From a virus (lineage: Duplodnaviria; Heunggongvirae; Uroviricota; Caudoviricetes), in IMG/VR virus record IMGVR_UViG_3300046500_000231, positions 74,070 through 113,003 of that record: a stretch of DNA of 38,934 nucleotides; one strand, 5' to 3'. How positions within the stretch are numbered: the stretch's first letter is position 1; the number at the start of each line of letters is the position of its first letter. The notes under the pieces are model-generated. The model had not been told where the DNA came from, did not search any database, and saw only the letters and a list, made by a program, of their open reading frames with translations. Shown in pieces: positions 1 through 13,218 of this stretch. A program made the translations under genes and the position numbers.

Positions 1-779
1 TCCTCGCCTTCTTCTTCTTCGCCTTCGTCTGACGCGCTGCCCTTGCCCCTACCCTTCGCACCGGCTTTGGCCGCACCGCCCGTCGATTTCTTTTTCTTCT
101 TGGTGGCACCCCCACCACCGCCGGACCCACCGCCCGCACCGAGCGCCTTCAGCACTTCTTCGGCGACTGCGACCGCATCGGCGGTCGAGGCGCAGTTCTC
201 GATCTGCGAGGCGAGGTGTTCGATCTTGGCGAGCTCCTCCTCGACCGCTTCGGCGTAGTCGGGGTGGTTGCTCATGAACTCCTTGAAAATCTGCTGGCCC
301 GCCATCGCGCGGATCGCGGGGACCATGACGGCGGCTTTCACGCCGTTCGCGTCGCCCTTCTTGGCGCACTCCTCGACGTGGCGCTTGGTGTATTTCTCGA
401 GGAAGAAGCGTCCGACCGTGGAGATATTGGCACCGGACCCTGCAAAGCGCTGTGCCATCGCCTTTTCGATGCGGGCATCTTCGATCAGGTTCGCCATGTT
501 GTGCAGCGAGGGGCTGCGGCGACCCGCTTCATTCATCGCCTTGAAGTCGGTGAAGAGGATATGCGCGACTTCGTGGTCGAGAAAGCCCTGGATCGCGTCG
601 ATCAGTTCATCGGTGGCGTTATCCGGGATGAAGGGCAGGTTCACACGCTGCGGCTCGCCATCCGGGCCCGGTTCGACATAAGCCTGCACCCCTTGCTGCG
701 TGACGCGCACGCCCTTACCGGCAAGCATCTGCGTGAGCTTGACGACCGCCTCACGCATCACTGCAACACGTTCATTCAT
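1..779 (-). CDS. CobT-like / VWA-associated protein, N-terminal part (runs off the window start)
   Basis: Missing from the ORF track because it has no stop in the window. My translation from ATG 779: MNERVAVMREAVVKLTQMLAGKGVRVTQQG...FLDHEVAHILFTDF...NLIEDARIEKAM, then a G/K/E-rich linker. HExxH plus the IEDxRIE motif is typical of CobT N-terminal domains. AGGGGT RBS upstream. Confidence 0.75.
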   Translation of the reverse strand, partial: MNERVAVMREAVVKLTQMLAGKGVRVTQQGVQAYVEPGPDGEPQRVNLPFIPDNATDELIDAIQGFLDHEVAHILFTDFKAMNEAGRRSPSLHNMANLIEDARIEKAMAQRFAGSGANISTVGRFFLEKYTKRHVEECAKKGDANGVKAAVMVPAIRAMAGQQIFKEFMSNHPDYAEAVEEELAKIEHLASQIENCASTADAVAVAEEVLKALGAGGGSGGGGGATKKKKKSTGGAAKAGAKGRGKGSASDEGEEEEGE

Positions 780-800
780 CGCATACCCCTTTTGTTAGTG

Positions 801-869
801 TGTCAATACTGACTGAACAAGTGCAATTGTAGAGACGCATTTCAGGGCACGCAACAGTTATTACTGACT
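801..869 (-). promoter_or_regulatory. Leftward sigma70-like promoter for the cobT-like gene, flanked by two imperfect palindromic operators
   Basis: Minus strand TTGCGT (849-854), 17 nt, TACAAT (826-831). TGTCA-ATAC-TGACT at 801-814 and AGTTA-TTAC-TGACT at 856-869, each one mismatch from consensus. Confidence 0.6.
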
Positions 870-880
870 GTTGTTCTGGC

Positions 881-906
881 AAAAAAAACGGCGTCCGAAG
901 ACGCCG
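881..906 (-). terminator. Rho-independent terminator
   Basis: Minus strand CGGCGTC-TTCG-GACGCCG followed by 8 T, just downstream of the 928..1152 gene. Confidence 0.85.
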
Positions 907-927
907 CAAGACTCGCAGGTAAGACTG

Positions 928-1152
928 TTACATGAGCGGGATGAGGGCGGTCGCTCCTGAGTCAGTGCTGATGAGCAAGATGGCTCCCAACGCCGGATGA
1001 ATCATCTTGCTAATCAAGGACGAACCGAGGTCCAGACGCGACACCTGCGACGACTGCTCCAGGTATTCGACGTATTGGTCAGGCTCGATCAGGGCGCCCA
1101 GTTGGGTTGCGGCCGATGCTGCGATGTGTGCTTGCGTGTTACCCGTGTTCAT
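928..1152 (-). CDS. Small hypothetical protein (74 aa), monocistronic, divergent from the XRE gene
   Basis: ORF 928..1212 in the track. ATG 1152 is preferred: it has a GGAG RBS, and the ATG at 1212 lies inside the operator/-10 region. Has its own promoter and terminator. Confidence 0.6.
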   Translation of the reverse strand: MNTGNTQAHIAASAATQLGALIEPDQYVEYLEQSSQVSRLDLGSSLISKMIHPALGAILLISTDSGATALIPLM

Positions 1153-1201
1153 TGAGGGAACTCTCCAGAAACTTTTAAACAGTTTGATGCGTTGCTGAAA
1201 C

Positions 1202-1222
1202 ATTATAGTCATCGCTGACTAT
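1202..1222. promoter_or_regulatory. Perfect palindromic operator AGTCA-TCGC-TGACT overlapping a leftward -10 box
   Basis: ATAGTCATCGCTGACTAT at 1205-1222. Minus-strand TATAAT at 1202-1207. Confidence 0.75.
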
Positions 1223-1309
1223 TGTATGTCGATTAGATGCGTCTTTTTTCATCCACTCGGGATTGCATTCGGTAAAAAAGTGAGTAGAATCCGGCACATA
1301 GGCATTGTC

Positions 1310-1386
1310 AGTCAGCACTGACAACCAGCCCAAATGCGATATCTCCCACCAAGTTCAGTCAGTAGTTATTACTAGCTGACTATAAT
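1310..1386 (+). promoter_or_regulatory. Operator and half-sites plus -10 box upstream of the XRE gene
   Basis: AGTCA-GCAC-TGACA at 1310-1323. Half-sites AGTCA (1357-1361) and TGACT (1377-1381) run into TATAAT (1381-1386). Confidence 0.6.
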
Positions 1387-1436
1387 CGACTCAACAGAAT
1401 ACGCGGGACGTCCCGCACCGATAAGGAGAGAACAAA

Positions 1437-1859
1437 ATGACCACGAAGAAGAAGCCCGAAGCAATGACTGTCGCCGAATACTTCGATGCACAGGTCGCGC
1501 TACGTCAAATGACGCTGGCACAACTGAGCAAGGACATTGGCGGTGTGCTCAAGCCGAACATGCTGTCGATGATTCGCCAGGGGCACTCGAAGCTGCCGTT
1601 GATTCACGTTGGCCGCGTAGCGCGAGCGCTGGGCGTGGACCCGGTGTTCCTGCTGAAGCTGTGCATGAACGAATACCAACCGGAGAACTGGAAGGCGATT
1701 CAAGAAGTTTTCAGCGAACAGCCGATTCTGACGCGCAACGAGATTGCACTGATCAAGGCGATCCGCGACGCGAACCCGAATAACCCGAAGCTGAGCACGA
1801 AGGCCGACGAGCACAAGTTCACGCAAGTCGTCGCGGCGCTGGGCGGCGATAACGAGTGA
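1437..1859 (+). CDS. XRE-family helix-turn-helix regulator, probable phage repressor
   Basis: TLAQLSKDIGGVLKPNMLSMIRQG...RVARALGVDP is a Cro/C1-type HTH. AGGAG RBS and downstream terminator. Confidence 0.85.
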   Translation: MTTKKKPEAMTVAEYFDAQVALRQMTLAQLSKDIGGVLKPNMLSMIRQGHSKLPLIHVGRVARALGVDPVFLLKLCMNEYQPENWKAIQEVFSEQPILTRNEIALIKAIRDANPNNPKLSTKADEHKFTQVVAALGGDNE

Positions 1860-1894
1860 GAAGGCGGTAGTCGGTTTCATAGCAGTTCGGTTGG

Positions 1895-1926
1895 CTTAAA
1901 GAAGCGCCCACGAGGGCGCTTTTTTT
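1895..1926. terminator. Intrinsic terminator, probably bidirectional
   Basis: AAGCGCCC-ACGA-GGGCGCTT at 1902-1921. T-run on the + strand; shorter CTTT tail on the - strand. Confidence 0.85.
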
Positions 1927-1990
1927 ATGGCTGTATTACAGGGGCTTGCGTCGTCGCCTTACTGTGCATTCATACAGTGGCGAGTCAGTG
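1895..1990 (-). ncRNA. Candidate ~95-nt small RNA
   Basis: Minus-strand promoter TTGTCT (2019-2024), 17 nt, TACAAT (1996-2001). 5' hairpin at 1954-1983. Ends at the 1902-1921 hairpin. Only a 4-codon ORF inside. Confidence 0.4.
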
Positions 1991-2069
1991 ATGGAATTGT
2001 ATGAGCCTTGAAGGCGAAAGACAACTGGCAGTTACTTTTTTGTTAAAAAATGTTTGCGAGGTGTTACTT

Positions 2070-2092
2070 AAAAAAGACGGCAAAATTTGCCG
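2070..2092 (-). terminator. Intrinsic terminator of the XRE-PAS gene
   Basis: Minus strand CGGCAAA-T-TTTGCCG followed by TCTTTTTT, directly after the stop at 2094-2096. Confidence 0.7.
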
Positions 2093-2093
2093 G

Positions 2094-2774
2094 TTATTCC
2101 GCCCTTTTGGTCGCTTCGAAGTGCGGACACCTGCTAACGCCTATCAAACGAATCGGTTGACCCCGATCATTGCGGTAAATTTGAAAGACTATCTCCACTT
2201 TGGGACATAATGCGTCCCTTGGTCGCACCAAAAGTGTGGCTCGCTCGGAAGACTCCAACAGGGTGCGATTGTAGAAATCATCAACCAACGGTTTACAATC
2301 ATCAGATAATAAAGCGCGAAAGCTGTCGTGGGACGGGAGGATCTCGGAGGGAGCGTTTAAGTGTCGGCGTGCGGGGTCGTTCCAATAGCACTTCCCTGTT
2401 AGCAGGTCTTCCTCAATGACACCGACGTCCAATAGATTGATAGCGACTGAGAGCCGCTCCTCATTGGCGATGACTTGTTCGACAAACTCTCTGCGGCGCT
2501 GTCCAAAGGTCTCTTGGGATCGTTGTTCTTCTAAGGACCGCAGCGCTGCGTCACCATAGCGTAGCCAAACCCAATTGACGCCAAGATGGTTGGCTACCTT
2601 CTGTAGCACTTCAAAGCCTATGTCCCCACCTTTGAGCCACTTGCCCACAGCTTGGGGAGTCACTGCAATGGCGCGCGCCAGCCCGGCCGCTGTCTCGTGC
2701 CTGTCATCCAAAGACTTTCTTAACCTATCGGGAAAGCCGGAGCCCTTGAAGTGGGCCGGAATTTTAGGTGTCAA
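2094..2774 (-). CDS. One-component regulator: N-terminal XRE HTH plus C-terminal PAS/PAC domain
   Basis: HTH: RLRKSL...TAAGLARAIAVTPQAVGKWLKG...LGVNWVWLRYG. PAS_3-like: NEERLSVAINLLDVGVIEEDLLTGKCYWND. PAC-like end: YRNDRGQPIRLIGV. TTG start with GAGGA RBS. Confidence 0.8.
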   Translation of the reverse strand: MTPKIPAHFKGSGFPDRLRKSLDDRHETAAGLARAIAVTPQAVGKWLKGGDIGFEVLQKVANHLGVNWVWLRYGDAALRSLEEQRSQETFGQRRREFVEQVIANEERLSVAINLLDVGVIEEDLLTGKCYWNDPARRHLNAPSEILPSHDSFRALLSDDCKPLVDDFYNRTLLESSERATLLVRPRDALCPKVEIVFQIYRNDRGQPIRLIGVSRCPHFEATKRAE

Positions 2775-2969
2775 ACTCTGTCCTCTTGATAGTTATTTTC
2801 GAAACGTTGCCAAGCTCTTTTAGGGGTAGTTTGTAACGAATTATATTTGAGGACTGATATCGGTTTAGTTGTAATTGTGCAAAGGTTGCCTTCTTTAGAT
2901 TGATGCACCTATCGTGCAAGTATTGTTGATCCCGAGCATAATGGAAAGCAACCTCGTCATGGACAAAAG

Positions 2970-3021
2970 TTGATACAAAACTTGATAGCTTGATACCAAG
3001 GTATCAACATACCAAGGTATC
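2970..3021. promoter_or_regulatory. Putative par operator / centromere-like repeats
   Basis: TTGATA at 2970, 2982 and 2990. Inverted repeat TTGATACC-AA-GGTATCAA at 2990-3007. ATACCAAGGTATC directly repeated at 2993 and 3009. Lies upstream of parA. Confidence 0.6.
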
Positions 3022-3106
3022 GAACGTGCTGTTCGGCTTGCAATGTTTCTTGTATGAACATCCACTATGGATTACGCTACCGGCAAAACTTCGTATGGAG
3101 AAGGCT

Positions 3107-3778
3107 ATGAAAAAAGCTAGGTCCGTAACTATGGTGGGAACAGAAAAGGGAGGTGTGGGCAAATCTACCTTTACACAAAACTTGGCATCAATCCGGTCGG
3201 GGCAGGGGCGGCGGGTCGCCGTGTTCGATCTGGACGGCCAGAATTCGACGTTCAAGTGGGCTGCCGACCGACGTGAGGCAGGCGGTTTGCCCGAGGTCCA
3301 CGTCAAGCGTATTGCAAAGGGAAAGAAGCTCGACGAGGACGAGTTTGCCGAGGAATTGGGCGAACTGACCGAGGAATATGAGGACGTTTTCATTGACGTC
3401 GGCGGGCAGGACTCGGACGTGTTCCGGTGGGGACTCGCGGTGGCCGATCACGTCGTCGTGCCGCTCATTCCATCGCCCGCGGACCTCAACACCGTGCCCG
3501 ATCTGTTCGATCTGGTCGGCACCTACACCAAGAAAATCCCGATCCAAATCGTGCTCAATCAGGCCGATAAAAGGAAACTGATGACGCAGGCGATGATCGC
3601 TCAGATCGAGCCTTTCGAGCACCGGCTGCCGCGCATGAAGATGCTGGTGGCGGCTCGCGAGAGCTACAAGTTTGCGATGGCGCAGGGCAGGGGAGTGGCG
3701 GAGTTGACTGGCCGGTATTGGGACGCGGCGGCCGCCAACGAGATGAAAGACCTTTATTTGGGAGTGTTCTCGTTATGA
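3107..3778 (+). CDS. parA: ParA partition ATPase (type Ib)
   Basis: Deviant Walker A KGGVGKST, then FDLDGQ, FIDVGG and ADHVVVP. No N-terminal HTH. ATG 3107 has a GGAGAAGG RBS. Confidence 0.93.
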   Translation: MKKARSVTMVGTEKGGVGKSTFTQNLASIRSGQGRRVAVFDLDGQNSTFKWAADRREAGGLPEVHVKRIAKGKKLDEDEFAEELGELTEEYEDVFIDVGGQDSDVFRWGLAVADHVVVPLIPSPADLNTVPDLFDLVGTYTKKIPIQIVLNQADKRKLMTQAMIAQIEPFEHRLPRMKMLVAARESYKFAMAQGRGVAELTGRYWDAAAANEMKDLYLGVFSL

Positions 3779-4128
3779 TCAAATCAGTCATGGGTCCGCC
3801 CCGGCGCAAAAGCGATGAGTTTCGCGAGCAACTGCGGGAGCAGGCCGGCGCCATTGAAGCGTTGCACGAACCAGAGCCCGCAGTCGAACCGGCGGCCGTT
3901 GAGGTGACCGCGCCGGCACGCTCGGGCAAGGGACTCAACCTGCAGGCGATCCGAGCGCAGCAGCCGGCCAAAGAGGTGCCGGTGCAGCAGCCGGTGAGGG
4001 TGCCGCCCTCGCTCAAAGAAGACTTGGATCTGATCTGCTTTGCGCTCAAGAAAACCAAGAACGACTTCATCGTCGAGGCGTTGAAGAAGGAAGTGGCGCG
4101 CGAGAAGAAGCGTCTGGGCTTCGAGTAA
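3775..4128 (+). CDS. ParG-like ribbon-helix-helix partition adaptor
   Basis: ATGA overlap with the parA stop. Flexible N-terminus followed by an RHH-like end (VRVPPSLKEDLDLICFALKKTKNDFIVEALKK). Confidence 0.75.
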   Translation: MIKSVMGPPRRKSDEFREQLREQAGAIEALHEPEPAVEPAAVEVTAPARSGKGLNLQAIRAQQPAKEVPVQQPVRVPPSLKEDLDLICFALKKTKNDFIVEALKKEVAREKKRLGFE

Positions 4129-4172
4129 CCGTCTTCTTGCAGACGCTTTTCGGGTTTTCAGATGCGCCTGGG

Positions 4173-4548
4173 CTATTGGGAGGATTTTCAAGTTGGCACT
4201 TGGGTGGGCCAACCTTATGCACAATCCTCTCGCGCGCGGTTTGTAGACGTTTGTAAACCCGTTTGTATACGCCTCAAACCCTTGCTGGATAAGGCGTTGC
4301 GAGACGCTATTGGGAGAAAAGCCAAGTCAAATGGGAGGATTTCCCAGTCAAATGGGAGGAAAGCCCAGTCGGTATTGGGAGGAAAGCCAAGTCATCGCCG
4401 GTTATGCACATGGAAAATCCTCCCAATAGCAGAACGAGGGACAGACAGACTTGAAAATCCTCCCAGTGACAACGCCAAAATGGGGGTGCAGAATGCCACC
4501 ACTCCCAATGTGACCCGCATCCTGGCAACCTGAAAATCCTCCCAATAG
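4173..4548. repeat. Iteron-type plasmid origin (oriV)
   Basis: TGGGAG(G/A)A-type 17-18-mers at 4177, 4311, 4332, 4353 and 4376 (tandem spacing 21, 21, 23). Three inverted copies at 4412-4429, 4449-4465 and 4528-4548. DnaA boxes TTATGCACA at 4215 and 4402. Three GTTTGTANAC 10-mers at 4239, 4249 and 4261. Confidence 0.85.
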
Positions 4549-4549
4549 C

Positions 4550-5332
4550 ATGAAGCTCAAGCACGCCACCACTGGGCCGAGCCTGGTTGATCGACATGTG
4601 TCCATGCACAATGACCTGCTCGCGGCGTCGCACGGGCTCAAAACGGTCGCCGAGCAGCGGATCGTCAAGTCATGCGCCGCGAAGCTCGACAGCGTGCGCC
4701 TAGACAGTCATAACCGCTACAAGGTGCGTTTGACGGCCCAGGAGTATGCCGACACCTTCGAGATCGACATGTCCACGGCCTACATTCAACTGAAGTCGGG
4801 ATGCGAGTCGCTCGCCGAGCGCTGGATCACGTGGAGCGAGCCGGTGCAGCGCGGTGCGGTTGCCGTGCATAAGGACCGGTGGGTGAGTGGGGCGACGTAT
4901 GTCGAGAAGGCCGGATGGGTCGAATTGCGGTTCTCGCCCGAAGCAACGCCGTATTTGATGGTCTTGCGCGGCAACCACACGACCTACTTACTCAAACAGG
5001 CTTCGGGGCTTCGCTCGATCTACTCGTGGCGACTGCTCGAGCTCCTCATGCAATTCAAAGACACCGGCTGGCGGCAGATGCCGATCCGCGAGTTCCTGCA
5101 CGCGATGGATGCAAAGCCGAGTCATCTCCAGAACTTCAAGGATGCGCGTCGCCAGATCATCGAGGTGGCTGTCGAGGAGCTCCAAAAGAAAGACGGCTGG
5201 CTTATCAACTGGTCGACGATCAAGGAGGGCCGCAAGGTCACGCAAATCCGCTTCGAGTTTTCGCGCAACCCGCAGGGTCAACTGGCGCTCGAGGACACCA
5301 GCCCGCCGGTAGAGGCGGAGCAATGCAACTAA
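4550..5332 (+). CDS. repA: Rep_3-family plasmid replication initiator
   Basis: NDLLAASHGL...EQRIV, WVSGATY...GWVELRFSPEATPYL, LRSIYSWRLLELL and KEGRKVTQIRFEF. Adjacent to iterons. The exact start is uncertain (no SD before 4550). Confidence 0.92.
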   Translation: MKLKHATTGPSLVDRHVSMHNDLLAASHGLKTVAEQRIVKSCAAKLDSVRLDSHNRYKVRLTAQEYADTFEIDMSTAYIQLKSGCESLAERWITWSEPVQRGAVAVHKDRWVSGATYVEKAGWVELRFSPEATPYLMVLRGNHTTYLLKQASGLRSIYSWRLLELLMQFKDTGWRQMPIREFLHAMDAKPSHLQNFKDARRQIIEVAVEELQKKDGWLINWSTIKEGRKVTQIRFEFSRNPQGQLALEDTSPPVEAEQCN

Positions 5333-5356
5333 TGGTCTTCCGCGCACACGCCTTGC

Positions 5357-5391
5357 TTATCCACAGAAAACGTGGATAACCCTGTGGAGCA
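5357..5391. promoter_or_regulatory. DnaA-box cluster downstream of rep
   Basis: TTATCCACA at 5357-5365. Inverted CGTGGATAA (5371-5379) and TGTGGAGCA (5383-5391). Confidence 0.65.
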
Positions 5392-5394
5392 AGC

Positions 5395-5622
5395 ATGCAG
5401 CCTGTCATGAAGGTGGCGCACCGTGAGTGGGAGATTCGCTCCTTTCCCGAGCGTAAGGGCTTTCTCTGGCACGCGTGGGTCGAGGTCGAGCGTGGTCCGT
5501 GGGAAGACGAGGACGACGGCCAGATATTCAACTTCACCGACATTGGCTACTACGACACGGAAGCGGCCGCCGCTCAGCGTGGCGTCGATTGGGCGAAGGC
5601 ATGGCTCGACAGCAACTACTGA
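5395..5622 (+). CDS. Small hypothetical protein
   Basis: Trp/acidic-rich 75-aa ORF. Its stop overlaps the next start (TGATG). Confidence 0.65.
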   Translation: MQPVMKVAHREWEIRSFPERKGFLWHAWVEVERGPWEDEDDGQIFNFTDIGYYDTEAAAAQRGVDWAKAWLDSNY

Positions 5623-5879
5623 TGAGAAAGCCGGGTGCCGTTGCGTTAGGTGATGTGGCCGCCCGCGCGAGCCATCTCGACGTGGCATGTTCGCGCTGTG
5701 AGCGCCGCGGTCACTTTCAACTCGCGCGGCTGGTCGCGCGTTTTGGGCCGGACTTCCCGATGACGGACCTGGGCGACCGGCTGGCGAGCTGTCCGCACCG
5801 CAATGCGGCGGATTTCGGGCAGCGCTGCGACGTCCATTTCCCGGGCCTTGCCAACCTCATGAGCGACGACGAGGCGTGA
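5622..5879 (+). CDS. Small Cys-rich, putative Zn-binding protein
   Basis: From ATG 5622: MRKPGAVALGDV...ACSRCERRG...CPHRN...RCDVHF. Four Cys; coupled to the upstream gene. Confidence 0.7.
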   Translation: MRKPGAVALGDVAARASHLDVACSRCERRGHFQLARLVARFGPDFPMTDLGDRLASCPHRNAADFGQRCDVHFPGLANLMSDDEA

Positions 5880-5884
5880 CGTTG

Positions 5885-6523
5885 CTACATGCGGCCCCAT
5901 CCGAGCGCGGCAGGTCGGCTGTAATGCGGGTTCTTCATTTTGAGCCAGTCGCGTGTGCGGCCGGCGGTGTAGGGCGCATCGAGCCGCTTTGCCATCACAC
6001 CCTCGAGGTCGAGCGTCGCCGCGTGCTGGAACGCGAGTTCCCCATGTTCTTCGACGCCGCCCGTATAGACGATGACCTTCGTGTCCATGAAGCTCTCACG
6101 CAGCATCGCCTTGCGCTCAAGCAGCCGCATGCGTCGCACGTCCTCTCGACCGGAGGCGAGCATATCGAACACGTAGAGCCTGGCTGGCTGTTCACGAGCA
6201 GCAGCGCGCACCCGCAATGGAACCCGAATGCGCGCCCGCTGCTGGAGGAGCTCGAACGACGGCCGCCCATCCGCTTCGTCCACCGTGAGTTCGGCATCCC
6301 ACACGAAACTGCCCGGCACCGCCTCAAGCGCGGCGACGATATCGGGAAACGAGCCGTTCAGCGAGTTGCCGTTGCGGGACACGAGCGCCACCTGATCGCC
6401 ATCCTTGCGCACCAGCGCGCGGTAGCCGTCGTATTTGATTTCGAAGATCCAGCCTTCGCGCGTGAACGGCGCCCGGGCGAGCGTCGCCAGCATCAGATGC
6501 GTATGGTCAATTGGCGGGATCAT
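5885..6523 (-). CDS. Minimal ATP-dependent DNA ligase (LigD/LigC-type adenylation domain only)
   Basis: From ATG 6523: WIFEIKYDGYR (KxDG), DAEL, YVFDML, EGVMAKR and WLKMK. Ends about 15 aa after motif V, with no OB-fold. Confidence 0.85.
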   Translation of the reverse strand: MIPPIDHTHLMLATLARAPFTREGWIFEIKYDGYRALVRKDGDQVALVSRNGNSLNGSFPDIVAALEAVPGSFVWDAELTVDEADGRPSFELLQQRARIRVPLRVRAAAREQPARLYVFDMLASGREDVRRMRLLERKAMLRESFMDTKVIVYTGGVEEHGELAFQHAATLDLEGVMAKRLDAPYTAGRTRDWLKMKNPHYSRPAALGWGRM

Positions 6524-6707
6524 TGACCGCTTCCGGCAGACGAGCACTGACGAAAGCGAGCTTCGCCCAGGCGTTTGTCGGGTCGCAGCCGGAGTAAGCG
6601 CAAAAGTGCTCAAAGTCCTCGAGCACCGTATGACCGCCAGCGTTGCGTTTGAGCACGCGGCCCTCCAGAATGTTCGCAAGCATGGCAGACGGGTCTTTGT
6701 AGCACAT
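6507..6707 (-). CDS. Small hypothetical protein upstream of the minimal ligase
   Basis: ATG 6707 with GGAGG RBS (MCYKDPSAMLANILEGR...). Overlaps the ligase start. Confidence 0.55.
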   Translation of the reverse strand: MCYKDPSAMLANILEGRVLKRNAGGHTVLEDFEHFCAYSGCDPTNAWAKLAFVSARLPEAVNDPAN

Positions 6708-6783
6708 GGCGTCCTCCGCACGGTTACGCTTACTATGAGCAAACTGGATTCCATGCCAGAAAATGCGCCAACCGGGAGGCAGC

Positions 6784-6948
6784 ATGGCAGAGAAATGGAC
6801 CTGCACGCTCTGCGGCTACACAGCCGAGGACATTGAGGAATTCCATGCCGCGCACCATCGGGACGATGGACTCTACATGGAGGAGCCGATCTGTCCGAAC
6901 TGCGGAGCCGAAGATTCGGCAGTTCGTGTCGGCCCGATTCCAGAGTGA
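6784..6948 (+). CDS. Small zinc-ribbon / rubredoxin-like protein
   Basis: MAEKWTCTLCGY...PICPNCGAE has two CxxC pairs. GGGAGG RBS. Confidence 0.7.
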   Translation: MAEKWTCTLCGYTAEDIEEFHAAHHRDDGLYMEEPICPNCGAEDSAVRVGPIPE

Positions 6949-7031
6949 TAATCATTATTATGTCAATCGAGGCATTCGATGACGCGCCGACGTGCCCGCG
7001 CTATCATCGGGAATGATCCAGGGTGACTGAG

Positions 7032-7202
7032 ATGGCCGACGAAGCAGACGCCTACAATGAGTGGCTGATTGCGAAGCTCCAGCGCGCGATGGCAAATCGC
7101 GACGGTCCGCTCACCGAACACGAGGCCGTGTTCGATGAAATTGACGCGATAATCGAAGCCGAGCCAGAAAAGGATGATCGAAATGGGAAATATCTGGACT
7201 GA
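7032..7202 (+). CDS. Antitoxin-like small protein, paralogue of the downstream antitoxin
   Basis: Not in the ORF track (56 aa). My translation: MADEADAYNEWLIAKLQRAMANRDGPLTEHEAVFDEIDAIIEAEPEKDDRNGKYLD. Aligns with AYDKWFREEVQAGIAEADAGLLTPHDQV. Confidence 0.6.
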   Translation: MADEADAYNEWLIAKLQRAMANRDGPLTEHEAVFDEIDAIIEAEPEKDDRNGKYLD

Positions 7203-7383
7203 GCCCGCCGTCAGCGGGCACGACACGAAGGAAGAAGCCGAAGCCTACGACAAGTGGTTTCGGGAGGAAGTCCAGGCGGGCATCGCCGAAGCTGACGCGG
7301 GCCTGTTGACACCGCACGATCAGGTGGTAGCCGAAATGCGCGCATATCAGGAAAAGAAGCGTCGGGAGCGCAATGACCGTTAA
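7183..7383 (+). CDS. Type II antitoxin (stability-determinant / RelB-like)
   Basis: YDKWFREEVQAGIAEAD...TPHDQV motif. Overlaps the toxin start. ATG 7183 has an AAGGA RBS (alternative start 7174). Confidence 0.8.
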   Translation: MGNIWTEPAVSGHDTKEEAEAYDKWFREEVQAGIAEADAGLLTPHDQVVAEMRAYQEKKRRERNDR

Positions 7384-7642
7384 CTGGACCGACAGAGCGA
7401 AAAACCGACTCCAGTTCTACCACGATCAGATTTGGCAAGACTCACCGGGCGCGGCCGACTTCGTGATGGACGCGATACTCGCGGCGGCCGCCGCCCTGCC
7501 TGACCATCCCCAAATCTACCGCGAGGGGCGCAAGCCGAATACCCGCGAGATGGTCGTGCTTCCAAACTACATTGTCGTCTATCGGATCAGGTCTGATCGC
7601 ATCGACATTCTGAACGTGCTTCACGCCCGGCAGCGCCGATGA
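7373..7642 (+). CDS. RelE/ParE/StbE-family toxin
   Basis: MTVNWTDRA...YREGRKPNTREMVVLPNYIVVYRI...IDILNVLHARQ. Confidence 0.9.
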   Translation: MTVNWTDRAKNRLQFYHDQIWQDSPGAADFVMDAILAAAAALPDHPQIYREGRKPNTREMVVLPNYIVVYRIRSDRIDILNVLHARQRR

Positions 7643-7668
7643 AAAAGCCGCCCTTGAGGCGGCTTTCG
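7643..7668. terminator. Hairpin terminator between convergent genes
   Basis: AAAGCCGC-CCTTGAG-GCGGCTTT. Confidence 0.75.
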
Positions 7669-7672
7669 TTTA

Positions 7673-8305
7673 TCACTCCGACAACCACCTCGCGCGCTCG
7701 ATCTGCGGGTCCAGTTTGATGATGGTGCGATAGGCTTCGCGCAACTCCGGCCACTCCAGGTCAAACACGTCGGCGAGCTCCAGCGACAGACCAAAGAGCG
7801 GCGCCACCTTGTCGTCGATCTCCTGCCAGAACACATAGTGGGTGCGGATATGACGCGGTGCTGCCTTCAAAATCTCGTTAGCGAGCGGCGTGAGGCGCCC
7901 GTCGCGGCGAAAATTCAGTGCTCGCTCCCACTTGAGCGTGATGAGGTCATCAATCGGCATGTCGAGCTCGAGGCCAAAGAGGACGGCGGCCGGTCGGGGC
8001 TGCGTCAGTGCTTCTAAACCGACGCGCAGTTCGCCAAGCGTCATGCGCTCTTGCGGAATAGCGAAGCGCAGCAATGGCACGTCTGCAATCTCGCCTCGTG
8101 CGTGCGCTTGTCGCACCTGCATGAGCACAGTCTCAATGATCGACTTGCCCTCTTCGTCTTGGGCGTCGAGCTTCAGTCGCGTGAGAAAAGCGTGGAGCTG
8201 AACCGGGTGAATCCTGTCCAGCGGAGTCTCCCACATGGGAGAGGAAGCGAGGGGCGTATTGCCCAGGAGGGAAGACAACTCCCCAATGTCTTTGAGCGCC
8301 TGCAT
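7673..8305 (-). CDS. Hypothetical protein with a degenerate tyrosine-recombinase-like segment
   Basis: AAVLFGLELDMPIDDLITLKWE resembles the integrase box (LLLxTGxRxxELxxLxW) but lacks the catalytic Arg. No HxxR motif follows. Confidence 0.65.
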   Translation of the reverse strand: MQALKDIGELSSLLGNTPLASSPMWETPLDRIHPVQLHAFLTRLKLDAQDEEGKSIIETVLMQVRQAHARGEIADVPLLRFAIPQERMTLGELRVGLEALTQPRPAAVLFGLELDMPIDDLITLKWERALNFRRDGRLTPLANEILKAAPRHIRTHYVFWQEIDDKVAPLFGLSLELADVFDLEWPELREAYRTIIKLDPQIERARWLSE

Positions 8306-8345
8306 GAATGTTCTCCAGAGGCGCTCAAAGATACCACAGGGTCGG

Positions 8346-8621
8346 TCACTGCTGGCGCTCTCGAACCTCCTCCTTGAGTTCTTCGAGCGTGGCCTGGCGC
8401 GCGGCGGACTGCCGGCTCAGTTCCATGAACTGCGTGCGCAGATGCACGATCTGGCCGCTGTAGATCGCCCTCGCGCCTAGCGAGAGGGAGAGCGCGGCCG
8501 CGAGCGTCATGAAGCAGAGAATCGCAGCCTGCGAGGACTCGAGCCCGACCGACAGTAGACAGGCAAGCTGCACGGCGACGATGACGACAAACAGCACGCC
8601 ATAGAACAGGCGGTTGCTCAT
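8346..8621 (-). CDS. Small membrane protein (2 TM plus coiled coil)
   Basis: From ATG 8621 (ATGA overlap with the upstream stop): MSNRLFYGVLFVVIVAVQLACLL..., two hydrophobic segments. Confidence 0.65.
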   Translation of the reverse strand: MSNRLFYGVLFVVIVAVQLACLLSVGLESSQAAILCFMTLAAALSLSLGARAIYSGQIVHLRTQFMELSRQSAARQATLEELKEEVRERQQ

Positions 8622-9283
8622 GCCGCCACCTGCTGAATCGGATGCACGCCGGCGAGACCCAGCACCTTCGACTTGATGACGCGGATCACCGACTCCTCGT
8701 TCTCCCGCTCGAAGACCGGCACGTAGAGGTCGATCACGTCGGACCCGGCCGTTTCCGCCCAGCGCTGCTCGGTGGTGAGCATTTCCTTCAGCCGCCCGGC
8801 GTAGTTCTTGACCATCGCCGCGGTGTCGTCGGGGCTCTTGTGGATCATCGCTTCGGCGATATCGATGCCGGCGCGCTTCAGAAAGCGCTCCGCGATCACC
8901 TGCGGCGGATTGTCGACGTAGACGGCAACGTGCGGCACTCCGTTCGCTTGGGCCCATTTGCGGATCTGGGCGAGGCCGATCGGCTCACAGACGAGCACCA
9001 CGTCCTTGCCCTGCGTGAACTTGTCTTTGACTTCCTTCACAGACAGGCCGTAGCGGTTACCGCCGAACTTCACTTCCTCGATGAAAGCGCCCTGCACCGA
9101 CAGCCGGTTGAACATGCTGTTATCGATGAAGTGGTAGCTCTGGCCGTCGACCTCCCCTTCGCGCGGCTGCCGCGTGGTGGTGCTCGTGAGTGCGGCGAAG
9201 CCTTCCGCGCGCAGCAACCCTTCGAGCGTGGTCTTGCCCGAGCAGGTCGGGCCCGTGAGTGTGACGATGGTGCGCTTACGCAT
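8618..9283 (-). CDS. Guanylate-kinase-like nucleotide kinase
   Basis: P-loop GPTCSGKTT, STTTRQPREGEVDGQSYHF and FIEEVKFGGNRYG. The C-terminal half is divergent. Confidence 0.85.
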   Translation of the reverse strand: MRKRTIVTLTGPTCSGKTTLEGLLRAEGFAALTSTTTRQPREGEVDGQSYHFIDNSMFNRLSVQGAFIEEVKFGGNRYGLSVKEVKDKFTQGKDVVLVCEPIGLAQIRKWAQANGVPHVAVYVDNPPQVIAERFLKRAGIDIAEAMIHKSPDDTAAMVKNYAGRLKEMLTTEQRWAETAGSDVIDLYVPVFERENEESVIRVIKSKVLGLAGVHPIQQVAA

Positions 9284-9488
9284 TGGTTGACTCCTGTGCC
9301 GGTGCCGACTTCGCAGCCAGCTTGGTCGTGATGACTTCGAGGAAGCGGCACATTGTGATCAAATCCACTTCCTGGTTGTGTTTGTTAAGCACGACGATGC
9401 GCGTGCCGATCATGCCGCGATCGAACGGCATCACGACGTGGCGCCAGGGCATCGTCGCCTGAATTGCTTTGAACTCAACCTCGTCCAT
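9276..9488 (-). CDS. Hypothetical phage protein
   Basis: From ATG 9488 (TGATG overlap): MDEVEFKAIQATMPWRH.... Confidence 0.6.
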   Translation of the reverse strand: MDEVEFKAIQATMPWRHVVMPFDRGMIGTRIVVLNKHNQEVDLITMCRFLEVITTKLAAKSAPAQESTNA

Positions 9489-9670
9489 CACCAGACTCCG
9501 AACCAGATGCCAATGCCGTGAATGATGGCGACCGGAAACATCAGCGCGCCTGCGATGAGGAAGCCCCACTTGCCGTGATCGAGGCAGTTGACGATGTGCG
9601 TGAGCCACGCCACCGCGAACGCCACGAACAGGAGCACGGCGATCGACGCGTTACCAAGTTGCTTTTTCAT
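9488..9670 (-). CDS. Small membrane protein
   Basis: 60 aa with two hydrophobic helices, within a chain of coupled genes. Confidence 0.7.
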   Translation of the reverse strand: MKKQLGNASIAVLLFVAFAVAWLTHIVNCLDHGKWGFLIAGALMFPVAIIHGIGIWFGVW

Positions 9671-10091
9671 GTGCTTTCTCCAAAGCCAGTGTGTTGATTT
9701 GAATTTGTTCGTCGGCGGACAGGTCGAGGCCGACGTGCTTCATCGCGATTGCGCGCATGTCGTTTAAATGCGCGCGTGTCGCTGCCAATGCTGCTTCGTG
9801 TGATTGCGTTGCTTCACCGCTCGATGGACGCAACCCTTGCTTGTAGAGCGCGTCAAACAGCACTTGCGCGGCCTTGTGCGTGAGTGTGAACATCGGTTCG
9901 GGTGGCATCATCTGACCGGTCGGGACGTTCTCGACTTCGACCGTGCCAAGCGGGCGGATCACGCCGACTCCGGTTGGGCCGCGGTAGGAGAGTGCGTGAA
10001 CGTCATATCCGCCCACGCCCATGTTCTCGCGCAGCATTGCCTCCTCGAGCCAGAGGGTCGGCACGGCCTTGATGACGGGCGTGGTGCTCAC
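9651..10091 (-). CDS. Hypothetical phage protein
   Basis: GTG 10091 overlaps the upstream stop; (M)STTPVIKAVPTLWLEE.... Confidence 0.65.
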   Translation of the reverse strand: MSTTPVIKAVPTLWLEEAMLRENMGVGGYDVHALSYRGPTGVGVIRPLGTVEVENVPTGQMMPPEPMFTLTHKAAQVLFDALYKQGLRPSSGEATQSHEAALAATRAHLNDMRAIAMKHVGLDLSADEQIQINTLALEKAHEKATW

Positions 10092-10282
10092 TTCTTCGGC
10101 TCCTCGTGAATGACTTCGCCCAGCGCCGAGTCGATGCGCAGCACCATACCGCCCGGCGGGCACTGAGCGACAGCCTGATAGCGGCGCACATACACCTTCA
10201 CGCCGCTATAGCGCTTGTGCTGCTCGCCTTGCTCGTTGAGCACGATGAAGAGTTCCTTGATGGGGCTTTTGGCGACTTTCAT
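10088..10282 (-). CDS. Hypothetical phage protein
   Basis: 64-aa ORF coupled to the ligase stop. Confidence 0.65.
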   Translation of the reverse strand: MKVAKSPIKELFIVLNEQGEQHKRYSGVKVYVRRYQAVAQCPPGGMVLRIDSALGEVIHEEPKK

Positions 10283-11667
10283 GCCGTCTCCTCGACCTTC
10301 TTGCCGGTGACTGCGTTGGCGCGAGCAGCCAGCACGTCTTCAAGGCTGTCGGCGGCGTATTTGTCGATGCGATACCAGTCTTCGGCCATGCGCGGCAGAA
10401 AGAGGCTATGCAGCGGGTTGCTGTCGGAGGGATACATGACCTCGTTGAAGCGCACCGGCCAAATGCGGTCGAGGAACGCTTCGCGATTCGCGTCGATGGC
10501 ATCGCGCAGCTTTTCGTTTTTCACCGCCACATAAACGCGCAGCTTGTCGTCGCGGGTGCGCATGCCCACGCGCCCTGCCCGGCCTTCGTTCTTCGTGCCT
10601 GCTTCGCCGTCGAGGATCTCGAACGACTCCAGATCGACGTCGATCTCCAGCTTGAGCTTGACCACATCGGGGTTGCCGCTGGAGGTGTCTTTCCAGCCAC
10701 CGTCGCCGTTCTTAATGACCGTGCCTTCCTTGCCTTCGATCTGCAGGCTTGCGCAGTGCGCATAGGCTTCGTCAAGCGAATGAACGACCTTCGTCGGGAT
10801 CAGTCTGACCGCCTGATTGTCACGCCCGTGCAACTGCTGGATCAGTCGTGTAATGCGACGGCGATATGGCGTATCGACCTTACCCTTCGGCACCGCCGCT
10901 TCGAGCGGGATTTGATCCCACGCATAGAACACCGGCAATTCATTTGCCGCGAAACTCCCGCCGGCAAGCACACTGTTCAGAATGCCGTTACCGGTGGCAC
11001 GGTCCGCAATCACGCCGTCGATAAGCACGACGATTTCGCCGTGTGTTTGCGTGCCCTTGTTGAACGTCTCGCGGATTTCGGCTTCCATCTCCGGGAAAGC
11101 CTCGATCGGCAGTTCATTACCCTGGCGCGTGGTCAGACGCACGATACCTGCGTTGTCGTGGTCGACGTTCGTGAAGGCGCCGTCAGCCTTGTGCTGACTG
11201 AAGACACCCTCTTCCCACGTCCACTTGTCGAACTTAGCCTTCTCCGGCAGCACGCAGCGCATATAGGGGAACGCGCGAATCGTGCCCTTCTTCGCCTTGT
11301 TGGCGGTTTCCGCCGAGAAGCCTGCGCGCAGGTCTTTCTTGATGATTCGCCAGAAGAGTTCGGATGATTCCGGCTCCAGGCGAATCATTTCGCCCGTGAC
11401 AGCCATGATCGCGTTGTTGCCGGTCACGCGGCGCTCTGCCAGATCAGCGATGAGACGCCAGGTGCCATCGTCAAACAGTTCGTCGCCGATCGCGCCTGCG
11501 ACCGGGCGCTTGCTGATGCCGTAGCTCACGAGCGGGTCGAGTGAGGCGACGAGCACGCGCTCAAAGTCGGCGTCGACGAGATAGGCGGAGACGAGCGCCT
11601 GCTTGTCGTTCTTGCTGCTGGTTCTGGCGATCAGGTCGATCACCTGAAAAATGTCCTTCGAGTTCAT
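10279..11667 (-). CDS. lig: Phage ATP-dependent DNA ligase (full length)
   Basis: SQHKADG (KxDG), THGEIV, FYAWDQI, EGKEGTVIKN and VKLK, with an N-terminal helical domain and a C-terminal OB-like region. Confidence 0.9.
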   Translation of the reverse strand: MNSKDIFQVIDLIARTSSKNDKQALVSAYLVDADFERVLVASLDPLVSYGISKRPVAGAIGDELFDDGTWRLIADLAERRVTGNNAIMAVTGEMIRLEPESSELFWRIIKKDLRAGFSAETANKAKKGTIRAFPYMRCVLPEKAKFDKWTWEEGVFSQHKADGAFTNVDHDNAGIVRLTTRQGNELPIEAFPEMEAEIRETFNKGTQTHGEIVVLIDGVIADRATGNGILNSVLAGGSFAANELPVFYAWDQIPLEAAVPKGKVDTPYRRRITRLIQQLHGRDNQAVRLIPTKVVHSLDEAYAHCASLQIEGKEGTVIKNGDGGWKDTSSGNPDVVKLKLEIDVDLESFEILDGEAGTKNEGRAGRVGMRTRDDKLRVYVAVKNEKLRDAIDANREAFLDRIWPVRFNEVMYPSDSNPLHSLFLPRMAEDWYRIDKYAADSLEDVLAARANAVTGKKVEETA

Positions 11668-11677
11668 AGCTCTCCCT

Positions 11678-12379
11678 TTAGTGTGTGGTTTGTGCGGCTT
11701 CTTTCTCTTTGAGCGCGCGAACGCGCTTGGCGAAATCGAGCATCGTTTCGCCCGGCAGCATCTTGGGCGGGGCGATCGTTGCTCGCGGGGGTTCTGCGGC
11801 GACAGCCGCAGCGGGTGTTGGTGTGGGCATGACTGGTAGTTGCGTTTTCGCCTTCGAACGCTCAGCCGCCTCGACCATGATTGAGGTCACGGCGGCCGTG
11901 AGTGCGTCCGCATAACCGCCGCTACCGACGACCACGCTGGGCGTAACCTGCGGTGCGGTTTTTGTGACGGGAGGCGGCGTGGCGCCCTTCTTCGCCTCAC
12001 GCTCGGCGCGCGCTTCCTTGCTCGCGGCCTTGAGCTCGTCGAGGAACGCCGACGTGATGGGCGCCTTCGCTTGCGCGTTGAAGAATTCGAGTTGCTTGGC
12101 GCGGTCGATGTAGAACATCGCGCGGCCTTCGAGCTGCTCCTGAGCGCGCATGGAGAGCGCCGGGCAGGTCTTGCCTTCGATCGCCGTCGTGCAGCCCGAG
12201 AACACGCTCGGCATCCGGCCTTCCTCGACCGCGGCGACCTTGTTCAGACACACCGCATAACCGGGACGGCAGCCGCCCGCCGCGCAGTAATCCATGTAGT
12301 AGGCGTTCGTGCCCGCTGCGGACTGTGCCGGCGGGTAATACGTGTCGTCTTTGAAGACGGGCTTCTCGATCTGAGCCAT
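11678..12379 (-). CDS. Hypothetical phage protein (Cys-rich N-terminus, Ala/Pro-rich linker)
   Basis: ATG 12379 with AGGGGAG RBS; NAYYMDYC...RPGYAVCL...C...CPA. Confidence 0.7.
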   Translation of the reverse strand: MAQIEKPVFKDDTYYPPAQSAAGTNAYYMDYCAAGGCRPGYAVCLNKVAAVEEGRMPSVFSGCTTAIEGKTCPALSMRAQEQLEGRAMFYIDRAKQLEFFNAQAKAPITSAFLDELKAASKEARAEREAKKGATPPPVTKTAPQVTPSVVVGSGGYADALTAAVTSIMVEAAERSKAKTQLPVMPTPTPAAAVAAEPPRATIAPPKMLPGETMLDFAKRVRALKEKEAAQTTH

Positions 12380-12390
12380 GTGCTCTCCCC

Positions 12391-12663
12391 TTACCAGGTG
12401 CCCCACTCGGGGCGGAATTCTTCGAACTCTTGCCGCGCGTCAGCATGGGCGCGCAGCATGTTGGCGAATGTGTTGATGACGGCCTTCTTCTCGGCGGCCT
12501 GGCGGATCACGCTGTTGAGGCGAAACTTCGCGTCGAACTCGACCAGCTTTCGAACGTCAGGCGACATGCCGGCGAGCAGTTCTTCTGCACCCTCACGGCG
12601 TCCGTCATCGCGGCCCTCGTAATACGCCGCGTTCTCTGCTTCGAACGGATCAGGCTCAATCAC
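12391..12663 (-). CDS. Hypothetical protein ending in WGTW
   Basis: GTG 12663 overlaps the upstream stop (GTGA). Confidence 0.65.
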   Translation of the reverse strand: MIEPDPFEAENAAYYEGRDDGRREGAEELLAGMSPDVRKLVEFDAKFRLNSVIRQAAEKKAVINTFANMLRAHADARQEFEEFRPEWGTW

Positions 12664-13127
12664 CACGACCCCCACGCTTCGCCGCGATCGACGTTCTCCT
12701 CGACAGCGGGCTTACGCGCCGGACGTGCTTCAATCGGCACGTCGGCCGTCGCATCAAGCGCCAACTTCGTGAATAGCGCCTCGCGCGTGGCGGGTCCGGT
12801 GTAGTGCCGCTCCTTCTTGAGCGCGTTCGAATCCCATGTGCCGCCCTTTGAGCTGGCGATGTAGCCGAACGTGGTCGAGCGATCGATTTGGTAGTCGCCC
12901 TTCTGCTTGGCGTTAAATTGCCTGGCCGCGCTGTCTGTCATGGCCGGGCCGGAGTCGTGCTCGATGATCTTCATCTGCCCGCCGCCGGACTTCATCTGCG
13001 CGACCGGACCCCAGCGGCGCACTTCGACATAGCGACGCGCGATCGGGTTGGTGAACGCGATGATTTCGTAAAACTTAGTCCCGCCCGAGTGAATCTGCAG
13101 TGTAGGGCTAACAGTGATCGTTGACAT
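12660..13127 (-). CDS. WGR-domain-like protein ending in WGSW
   Basis: ATG 13127 with AGAGGA RBS. KFYEI...VEVRRWG...KQKGDY resembles the WGR nucleic-acid-binding fold. Confidence 0.65.
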   Translation of the reverse strand: MSTITVSPTLQIHSGGTKFYEIIAFTNPIARRYVEVRRWGPVAQMKSGGGQMKIIEHDSGPAMTDSAARQFNAKQKGDYQIDRSTTFGYIASSKGGTWDSNALKKERHYTGPATREALFTKLALDATADVPIEARPARKPAVEENVDRGEAWGSW

Positions 13128-13197
13128 TGATCGTTCCTCTTTCGCGCTAGACGTTGCGCGTCTCAATGAAATTCATTCTACGGTGCGCACATCGGGA

Positions 13198-13218
13198 AGT
13201 ATAGTCAGTAATGACTAT
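13198..13218. promoter_or_regulatory. Perfect operator AGTCA-GTAA-TGACT with leftward -10-like TATACT
   Basis: Operator at 13203-13216. The 22-mer TATAGTCAGTAATGACTATTGC is identical to 17099-17120. Confidence 0.75.

Follow-up and report, generated by a model that had tools for sequence, protein, structure and literature searches.

A conserved XRE-PAS regulator gene in the putative lysogeny-control region of a lineage of large temperate phages

The XRE-PAS gene and its surroundings

The 38,934-nt stretch of DNA analyzed here (the window) spans bases 74070-113003 of IMGVR_UViG_3300046500_000231, a virus record of 113,003 bp that carries terminal repeats and is rated 100% complete. It encodes a ParA protein, an Arc-like small protein, a Rep_3 initiator, ligases, a helicase and a primase, together with a tape-measure protein and tail proteins. 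Since par and rep genes are found with phage genes on one record, we regard the element as a phage-plasmid. The DNA matches of the record are to replicons of Burkholderia, Caballeronia and Paraburkholderia, and the nearest prophage in a named genome is that of a Paraburkholderia MAG. Among the public runs listed, the DNA of the record was found in rhizosphere metagenomes only, and no RNA datasets were listed.

The gene under study, which encodes a 226-amino acid protein (XRE-PAS), has a small XRE gene on one side and the par/rep module on the other in this phage-plasmid (Table 1), a position reported in a first-pass annotation of the window and confirmed here. Its homologues begin, in the alignment, at the same point as the TTG start codon. 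The probable promoter contains a −10 sequence (TATAAT; 2845..2840); neither a good −35 sequence nor a copy of the dispersed operator described below is present in the promoter block (2833..2864). The gene had also been credited with a terminator of its own. A hairpin followed by a T-run is indeed present immediately past the stop codon (2092-2078), but its predicted stability is low (−7.2 kcal/mol; z −1.0), and the terminator scanner found 5 sites where 4.8 were expected in shuffled sequence. Given the weak 6-bp stem and the equal frequency of such sites in shuffled sequence, a terminator at this position is plausible rather than demonstrated. With a GC content of 53.0% and a GC3 of 57%, XRE-PAS is, as already noted in the first-pass annotation, more AT-rich than its surroundings: the whole genome has 60.8% GC, the GC3 of the neighboring genes is 77-81% (140-amino acid XRE gene, 77%; rep, 81%; CobT-like gene, 78%), and the gaps flanking XRE-PAS have 46% and 40% GC.

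The order XRE-PAS, short promoter unit, 140-amino acid XRE gene (XRE140; opposite strand), 74-amino acid gene and early genes is common to seven relatives (L002, L003, L004, L008, L009, L010 and L011), which together with the phage in the window form the set of eight phages compared in this study. The early genes past the 74-amino acid gene encode CobT-like, MoxR-like and sigma-like proteins.

A dispersed operator (AGTCA-N4-TGACT) is present in 29 perfect copies in the 113-kb genome and in roughly 25-38 copies in each of three complete relatives; in the window, 13 operators with at most one mismatch were found vs. 0.7 expected. Its half-sites are identical in all relatives, and the recognition helices of both XRE proteins are conserved. 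No operator with at most one mismatch is present in an 11.9-kb stretch (1324-13203) that contains XRE140, XRE-PAS, the par and rep genes, a ligase gene and a RelE/ParE toxin-antitoxin pair. Because this stretch is free of operators, its genes, XRE-PAS included, are probably expressed in the prophage. Three operators occupy the gap between the divergently oriented XRE140 and 74-amino acid genes. XRE140 is hence divergent from an operator-covered early promoter, a layout like that of cI with PRM and PR, and we consider it probably the main repressor. The XRE140 protein consists of a Cro-like head and a helical tail, and a self-cleaving peptidase domain is absent from it, as it is from XRE-PAS; in a fold search, its PDB matches at E ≤ 0.001 were to the Cro-like head only.

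Table 1. Features of the XRE-PAS region and the maintenance modules found in its upstream slot.
Feature	Phage	Position	Strand	Basis or remark
74-amino acid gene	window	928..1152	minus	head of the early genes; TATAAT fused to a perfect dispersed operator (1207-1220)
140-amino acid XRE gene (XRE140)	window	1437..1859	plus	Pfam, PHROGs, fold; without peptidase domain
GC hairpin common to converging units	window	1902..1921		strong terminator on the XRE140 strand, weaker on the Px strand
Perfect LexA/SOS box CTGT-N8-ACAG	window	1962..1977		18 nt past the Px −10; same place in L002 and L008
Promoter Px, TTGTCT-17-TACAAT	window	1996..2024	minus	~60-110 bp 3' of the stop codon of XRE-PAS; kept in 7 of 8 phages
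13-bp palindrome TAACT-GCC-AGTTG	window	2022..2034	minus	overlaps the Px −35; candidate (inferred) XRE-PAS dimer site
Terminator-like hairpin and T-run	window	2068..2092	minus	directly 3' of the XRE-PAS stop; weak 6-bp stem
XRE-PAS regulator gene	window	2094..2774	minus	ORF, 226 amino acids; TTG start 2774, stop 2094-2096
PAS_3-type PAS domain	window	2130..2423	minus	residues 118-215; Pfam matches of homologues, family profile, model
Long linker helix	window	2433..2552	minus	residues 75-114; AlphaFold2 model
XRE (434 Cro-like) helix-turn-helix	window	2556..2735	minus	residues 14-73; Pfam, model, Foldseek
Ribosome-binding site GAGGA	window	2781..2785	minus	read directly; 6 nt 5' of the TTG start
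Probable promoter of XRE-PAS	window	2833..2864	minus	block ATCAGTYCTCAAATATAATTCG, common to the window and the phage-plasmid relative L002
GATACC/GGTATC repeats before parA	window	2970..3024		include the inverted repeat TTGATACC-AA-GGTATCAA
parA	window	3108..3778	plus	first gene of the swappable maintenance module; Pfam, PHROGs
Module ParA + Rep_3	window	2775-5332		
Module ParA + TrfA	L002	3400-5564		also in L007
Module 406-amino acid integrase + HTH_17 excisionase	L003 and L004	4390-5925		L009 and L010 too, by common upstream gap
Module 434-amino acid integrase	L008	196-1500		
Module 392-amino acid integrase + excisionase	L011	1-1497		

Domain architecture and family of the XRE-PAS protein

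XRE-PAS is built from an XRE head, a 40-residue helix and a PAS domain, and contains no further domains. The first-pass annotation had proposed precisely this architecture (an N-terminal XRE helix-turn-helix, a helical linker and one PAS domain, with no other output domain), and the Pfam HTH_3 match, the PAS_3 matches of its homologues, the AlphaFold2 model and Foldseek all agree with it. The HTH_3 match (PF01381; residues 32-71) scores 26.1 bits vs. a Pfam cut-off of 23. The AlphaFold2 model (mean pLDDT 86) comprises five helices of the helix-turn-helix domain (14-73), a single helix (75-114) and a full PAS fold (118-215), and its top Foldseek matches are the PAS domains of FixL and LOV-HK; next come 434 Cro and P22 c2, which match the head (TM 0.87 by target with 2cro). 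The recognition helix (PQAVGKW) shows little or no variation throughout the XRE-PAS family. PHROGs matches are mostly on the head, cover at most residues 11-133, and are to 'transcriptional repressor' families; an NCBIfam search of the three switch genes gave zero matches. XRE-PAS thus shares the 434 Cro/P22 c2 fold of its head with the lambda/434/P22 cI proteins; it differs from them in that it has no S24 self-cleaving domain (Peptidase_S24 was not found in a Pfam search with the XRE-PAS query) and in that the cI-like position is held by another gene. In its use of dispersed operators, the phage resembles P1 with its C1 repressor.

A Pfam search with the XRE-PAS query alone found only HTH_3 and no PAS match at E ≤ 1. 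However, PF08447 (PAS_3) is matched by 14 of 20 aligned homologues, and the family profile matches the first PAS domain of FixL (chain residues 17-128; E 7e-12) and the PAS domain of 3mr0 (E 1e-10). The modeled domain has strands at residues 118-123, 129-131, 178-183, 193-201 and 207-215, with pLDDT values >90 in most blocks, and these form the five-stranded antiparallel sheet with flanking helices that is typical of the PAS fold. The best 15 Foldseek matches are all PAS domains. We base the PAS assignment on the matches of the homologues, the family profile and the fold taken together.

When two copies of the protein were folded together, XRE-PAS scored 0.66 vs. 0.00 for the best control; the score mark of this test is reached by 20 of 30 proteins whose solved structure is a pair of one chain and by 1 of 23 proteins whose solved structure is a single chain. 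Three runs had at least 74% of their contacts in common, with pLDDT values of at least 79. The predicted homodimer interface is formed by residues 98-121, which include the C-terminal half of the linker helix (98-115), and by strands of the PAS sheet. Because PAS dimers have already been solved, the pass may mirror likeness to these structures and is not independent proof of dimerization.

At E ≤ 0.001, we found 368 cluster representatives of proteins from Pseudomonadota that combine an XRE helix-turn-helix with one to three PAS domains (HTH_3 and PAS_3); their clusters in the ESM Atlas are named 'Helix-turn-helix/PAS fold domain-containing protein'. Members of this family have the same head, VNWVWLRYG junction, helix and first PAS domain as the phage protein. 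The chromosomal members are 25-31% identical to it, and many of them possess two or three PAS domains. No characterized member was found in the literature; since the family of several hundred clusters apparently lacks one, a DNA site or ligand found for the phage protein would transfer to many chromosomal regulators. A tblastn search of 50,697 phage records yielded matches to the head only, reaching residue 139 at most, and the full-length matches in a plasmid search were exclusively distant PAS proteins of Burkholderia multivorans (25% identity). In one gammaproteobacterial clade of the family, XRE-PAS homologues (28-30% identical; L005 6001-6633 and L006 6001-6693) are positioned directly upstream of aceE-aceF-lpd, and they may be hitherto undescribed regulators of the pyruvate dehydrogenase operon.

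Two groups of described regulators share the order of domains. FG214 of Fimbriimonas ginsengisoli is a LuxR-type helix-turn-helix protein with a bis-histidine haem b (PDB 10JX), in which the state of the PAS domain controls dimerization and DNA binding (bioRxiv 10.64898/2026.03.15.711900). It has the same inverted order of helix-turn-helix, helical linker and PAS domain as XRE-PAS, for which it is a weak Foldseek match (rank 28), but its head is of the LuxR rather than the XRE type, and evidence for haem was not found in the phage protein. MmyB-like regulators (MltR, PDB 3pxp) combine an XRE-type N-terminal helix-turn-helix with a C-terminal PAS-like ligand-binding module; their association is with actinomycete antibiotic clusters rather than with phages (PMC3406030). 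An MmyB-type domain gave no Pfam match at E ≤ 1 in XRE-PAS, and its 50 listed fold matches do not include 3pxp.

A constant gene beside an exchangeable maintenance module

The phage XRE-PAS copies form one clade (support 100/97), with the exception of that of L011, which falls outside on a long branch. In all eight phages, the GC3 of XRE-PAS is 8-25 points below that of its neighbors, so the AT shift of the gene is old and common to the group. Directly upstream of XRE-PAS, five unrelated maintenance modules occupy one and the same slot in otherwise collinear phages (Table 1). Since plasmid-type and integrase-type modules alike fill this slot, the choice between a plasmid and an integrated lifestyle is a swappable module in these phages, and with the module junction positioned just upstream of XRE-PAS, the lineage shows such a lifestyle swap cleanly. 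The first-pass annotation had taken the AT-richness of the region as a sign of a swapped-in cassette. This suggestion did not stand: XRE-PAS has the same backbone position in seven relatives and a low GC3 in eight of eight phages, and it is the neighboring maintenance module that varies instead.

The presence of XRE-PAS across relatives, a survey that the first-pass annotation had proposed, extends to the seven relatives named above. L019, a more distant relative whose CobT-like protein is 54% identical, is missing both XRE genes; its record is 68% complete. In L019, an integrase-like fragment and a 61-amino acid gene (5059-5883) lie ahead of the CobT-like gene, and only seven forward-strand matches to the dispersed operator are found in 72 kb. 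Judged from gene order and phylogeny, XRE-PAS is a fixed backbone gene of the putative lysogeny-control region in a lineage of ~110-kb temperate phages with Burkholderiaceae-type hosts, and it is probably an extra input to the lysogeny switch rather than a recent insertion.

Half-sites resembling the GATACC/GGTATC repeats in front of parA also precede parA of L002, and the integrative relatives are without them. Because of this absence, we assign the repeats to the partition module and not to XRE-PAS; they are probably the operator or the centromere of the Arc-like partition protein.

Most known prophages are induced via DNA damage, and few phages are known to heed other cues (VP882, TF-smORF phages, arbitrium). 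The location of XRE-PAS calls two of these systems to mind, since here, too, a plasmid-like prophage encodes a transcription factor of its own beside its replication/partition genes. VqmA-Phi of vibriophage VP882 activates the counter-oriented small gene qtip; likewise, the transcription factors of the linear, plasmid-like TF-smORF phages, some of which adjoin par genes, activate a counter-oriented gene for a small protein that inactivates cI, and thereby provide an induction route parallel to DNA damage (PMC10432266). XRE-PAS is divergent from parA in the window and in L002, and it stands beside the integrase gene in the integrative relatives. In the gap upstream of XRE-PAS, the window and L002 have no conserved counter-oriented small ORF in common. 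VqmA-Phi is a homologue of the Vibrio quorum-sensing receptor, and the relation of XRE-PAS to it is limited to the PAS fold. VqmA carries a LuxR-type output domain, whereas the head of XRE-PAS is of the XRE type and N-terminal, and a LuxR/GerE helix-turn-helix had no Pfam match in it. The comparison with VqmA drawn in the first-pass annotation consequently holds at the level of the regulatory logic only.

Promoter Px and the possible role of XRE-PAS

The unit next to XRE-PAS is co-oriented with it and apparently non-coding. Its promoter, Px, begins ~60 bp past the stop codon of XRE-PAS and points toward the 3' end of the XRE140 gene; the Px of L011 has no good −10 sequence. Of the palindrome that overlaps the −35 region of Px, AAC...GTTG is invariant in eight of eight phages, GTTG doubling as part of the −35, and the 113-kb genome holds no second copy of the motif. 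Lambda-type repressors activate from sites near −40, and the center of the palindrome is near −40 as well. Its position would thus suit activation, and repression is equally possible. We looked for the same site beside chromosomal members of the family. AACT-N3-AGTT does not occur in the ~40 kb flanking 63 chromosomal homologues, and the relaxed forms AAC-N5-GTT (0.62 vs. 0.49 per kb) and AACY-N3-RGTT (8 matches vs. ~3.5 expected) are not convincingly enriched. A related sequence upstream of the L005 homologue, TAACT-ATA-AGTTA, which was considered as a site of the family, is in view of these figures best taken as a chance occurrence.

The sequence CTGT-N8-ACAG is the LexA box of Escherichia coli and of most Betaproteobacteria (PMC8565304; PMC6595937). 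The whole genome contains two such boxes only, vs. a mean of 1.3 in shuffled sequence, and one of them lies at Px (Table 1). Boxes are also found 120-220 nt upstream of Px in L003 and L010, and none in L004, L009 and L011; those of L010 (8541-8556) and L003 (6663-6678) are located in or just past the 3' end of XRE-PAS. Since neither of the two XRE proteins is self-cleaving, the LexA box at Px may be the route by which DNA damage induces this phage.

The Px unit converges with XRE140 on a common GC hairpin. On the XRE140 strand, 7-8 of the 9 bases following the hairpin are T, vs. 2-5 on the Px strand. As the hairpin is the weaker terminator on the latter strand, Px would give rise either to an RNA of ~90 nt or to a read-through transcript antisense to the repressor gene. 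In an RNA duplex search, the candidate RNA was compared in four phages with the translation starts of XRE-PAS, XRE140, parA, the CobT-like gene and the 74-amino acid gene; all z values were between −0.9 and +1.3, and thus no pairing exceeded chance. A search of positions 700-4700 against Rfam gave no match near the gathering score.

Collectively, we tentatively favor, as a possibility that falls short of an even chance, that XRE-PAS has an accessory regulatory function, possibly gated by a signal, at the conserved promoter Px. The protein would be a homodimeric one-component regulator whose N-terminal Cro-like XRE domain reads DNA; a long helix would run from this head to the C-terminal PAS domain, and the subunits would be held together by the PAS sheet and the helix end. 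With its gene inside the operator-free block, XRE-PAS would be made in the prophage state, where the role of the main repressor would fall to XRE140 and XRE-PAS would most likely serve as a local accessory at Px. We place it at the palindrome because no conserved unit other than Px with its palindrome is found beside the gene throughout; by this reasoning, we infer that an XRE-PAS dimer binds the palindrome overlapping the −35. Px, pointing at the repressor gene, would then yield the ~90-nt RNA or the antisense read-through across XRE140, and the state of the PAS domain, if a ligand for it exists, would feed into Px as a second input, next to the response to DNA damage that this promoter may show via LexA in this phage. 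What counts against binding at Px is that XRE-PAS is tied to the palindrome by adjacency and co-conservation alone, and the palindrome could instead be bound by XRE140 or by a host protein. Further points against the proposal are that GTTG belongs to the −35 as well, that the palindrome is not enriched beside the chromosomal homologues, that the candidate RNA does not pair above chance with nearby translation starts, and that the −10 of Px is poor in L011.

Other targets have to be weighed against Px. XRE-PAS might itself be the master lysogeny repressor and act on the ~30 dispersed operators, with the PAS domain as dimerizer and induction sensor and XRE140 in a Cro-like or secondary role. A predicted dimer suits the 14-bp palindrome of the operator, the probable expression of XRE-PAS from the operator-free block fits such a role, as do the matches of its head to the repressor families of PHROGs, and both its recognition helix and the operator half-sites are conserved, the latter without any difference among the relatives; moreover, an operator-type site is present in the 75-bp gap ahead of XRE-PAS in the integrative relatives, as autoregulation predicts. 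Yet the recognition helix of XRE140 is equally conserved, the promoter of XRE-PAS is free of operators in both phage-plasmids, and it is XRE140 that occupies the position of cI, facing away from the operator-covered early promoter across a gap that holds three operators, so that we regard this assignment of roles as rather unlikely. More improbable still is that XRE-PAS regulates the adjacent maintenance module, that is, partition and replication in the phage-plasmids and excision and integration in the integrative relatives. The divergent partner of the gene is parA in the window and L002, whereas in L003, L004, L009, L010 and L011 it is an excisionase-like HTH_17 gene, but the modules are mutually unrelated (Rep3, TrfA and three types of integrase) and yet the reading helix is unchanged, the repeats ahead of parA go with the partition genes, and no site is shared among all upstream gaps. 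Such exchange of the upstream module next to a constant regulator makes it unlikely that the regulator serves the module. We likewise hold it very unlikely that XRE-PAS is a prophage-expressed regulator of host genes, a form of lysogenic conversion that would exploit its likeness to the XRE-PAS regulators of the host. Chromosomal XRE-PAS-PAS paralogues of Burkholderia and Paraburkholderia (25-27% identity) do have the helix motif QAVxKW in common with it, and the gene resembles many cargo genes in its AT shift and its lack of operators; unlike typical cargo, however, it has one backbone position in every relative that possesses the control region.

A separate matter, compatible with any of these targets, is whether the PAS domain senses anything. 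The first-pass annotation had suggested that XRE-PAS may couple a small-molecule, redox or quorum cue to the lysis-lysogeny decision or to plasmid maintenance. The domain might also be a dimerization module only, in a constitutive regulator. The flavin-binding cysteine motif NCRFL of LOV photosensors (aureochromes having a comparable inverted order of domains) is not present in residues 118-215, as read directly from the sequence, and the F-alpha helix (158-173) contains no histidine, so that the proximal histidine of haem-type PAS domains (FixL PAS-B type) is absent. The closest PAS structures from the fold and profile searches (those of FixL and LOV-HK, 3mr0 and 3h9w) have titles that name neither a ligand nor a cofactor, which suggests that the domain may merely hold the dimer together; the use of the PAS sheet by the predicted dimer interface points in the same direction. 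On the other hand, the polar residues E122, R136, H149, R153, D165 and R178 vary little or not at all within the phage clade, which exceeds the need of a pure packing role, and related proteins stack two or three PAS domains, as sensors do. A PAS domain that senses nothing is on balance the less probable option, though one to be reckoned with.

For induction by cues other than DNA damage, the region is a compact test case: a sensor-type regulator is fixed beside the switch of its lineage, together with a non-cleavable repressor and a neighboring promoter at which a LexA box and a further conserved palindrome are found. One extension of the preferred reading, which we consider distinctly unlikely as a whole, is that XRE-PAS and the host LexA protein jointly gate Px against the gene of the non-cleavable repressor. 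DNA damage and an intracellular, metabolic or redox cue sensed by the PAS domain would then be two separate keys to induction, and these would act via an RNA or via convergent transcription and not via a small antirepressor protein. If true, these phages, whose lineage passes freely between the plasmid and the integrated state, would possess a counterpart of the TF-smORF modules that is based on RNA.

A further palindrome, the GC-rich GCGGGACGTCCCGC, is located in the leader of XRE140 (1401-1418), is unique in the window, and is kept in seven of the eight phages. Changes in it are confined to the center, and L008 has a 1-nt central insertion with the stem intact. We considered it as a protein binding site, but an insertion that leaves the stem intact suits an RNA hairpin better. 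On the opposite strand, such a hairpin could be a stop for the read-through transcript of Px.
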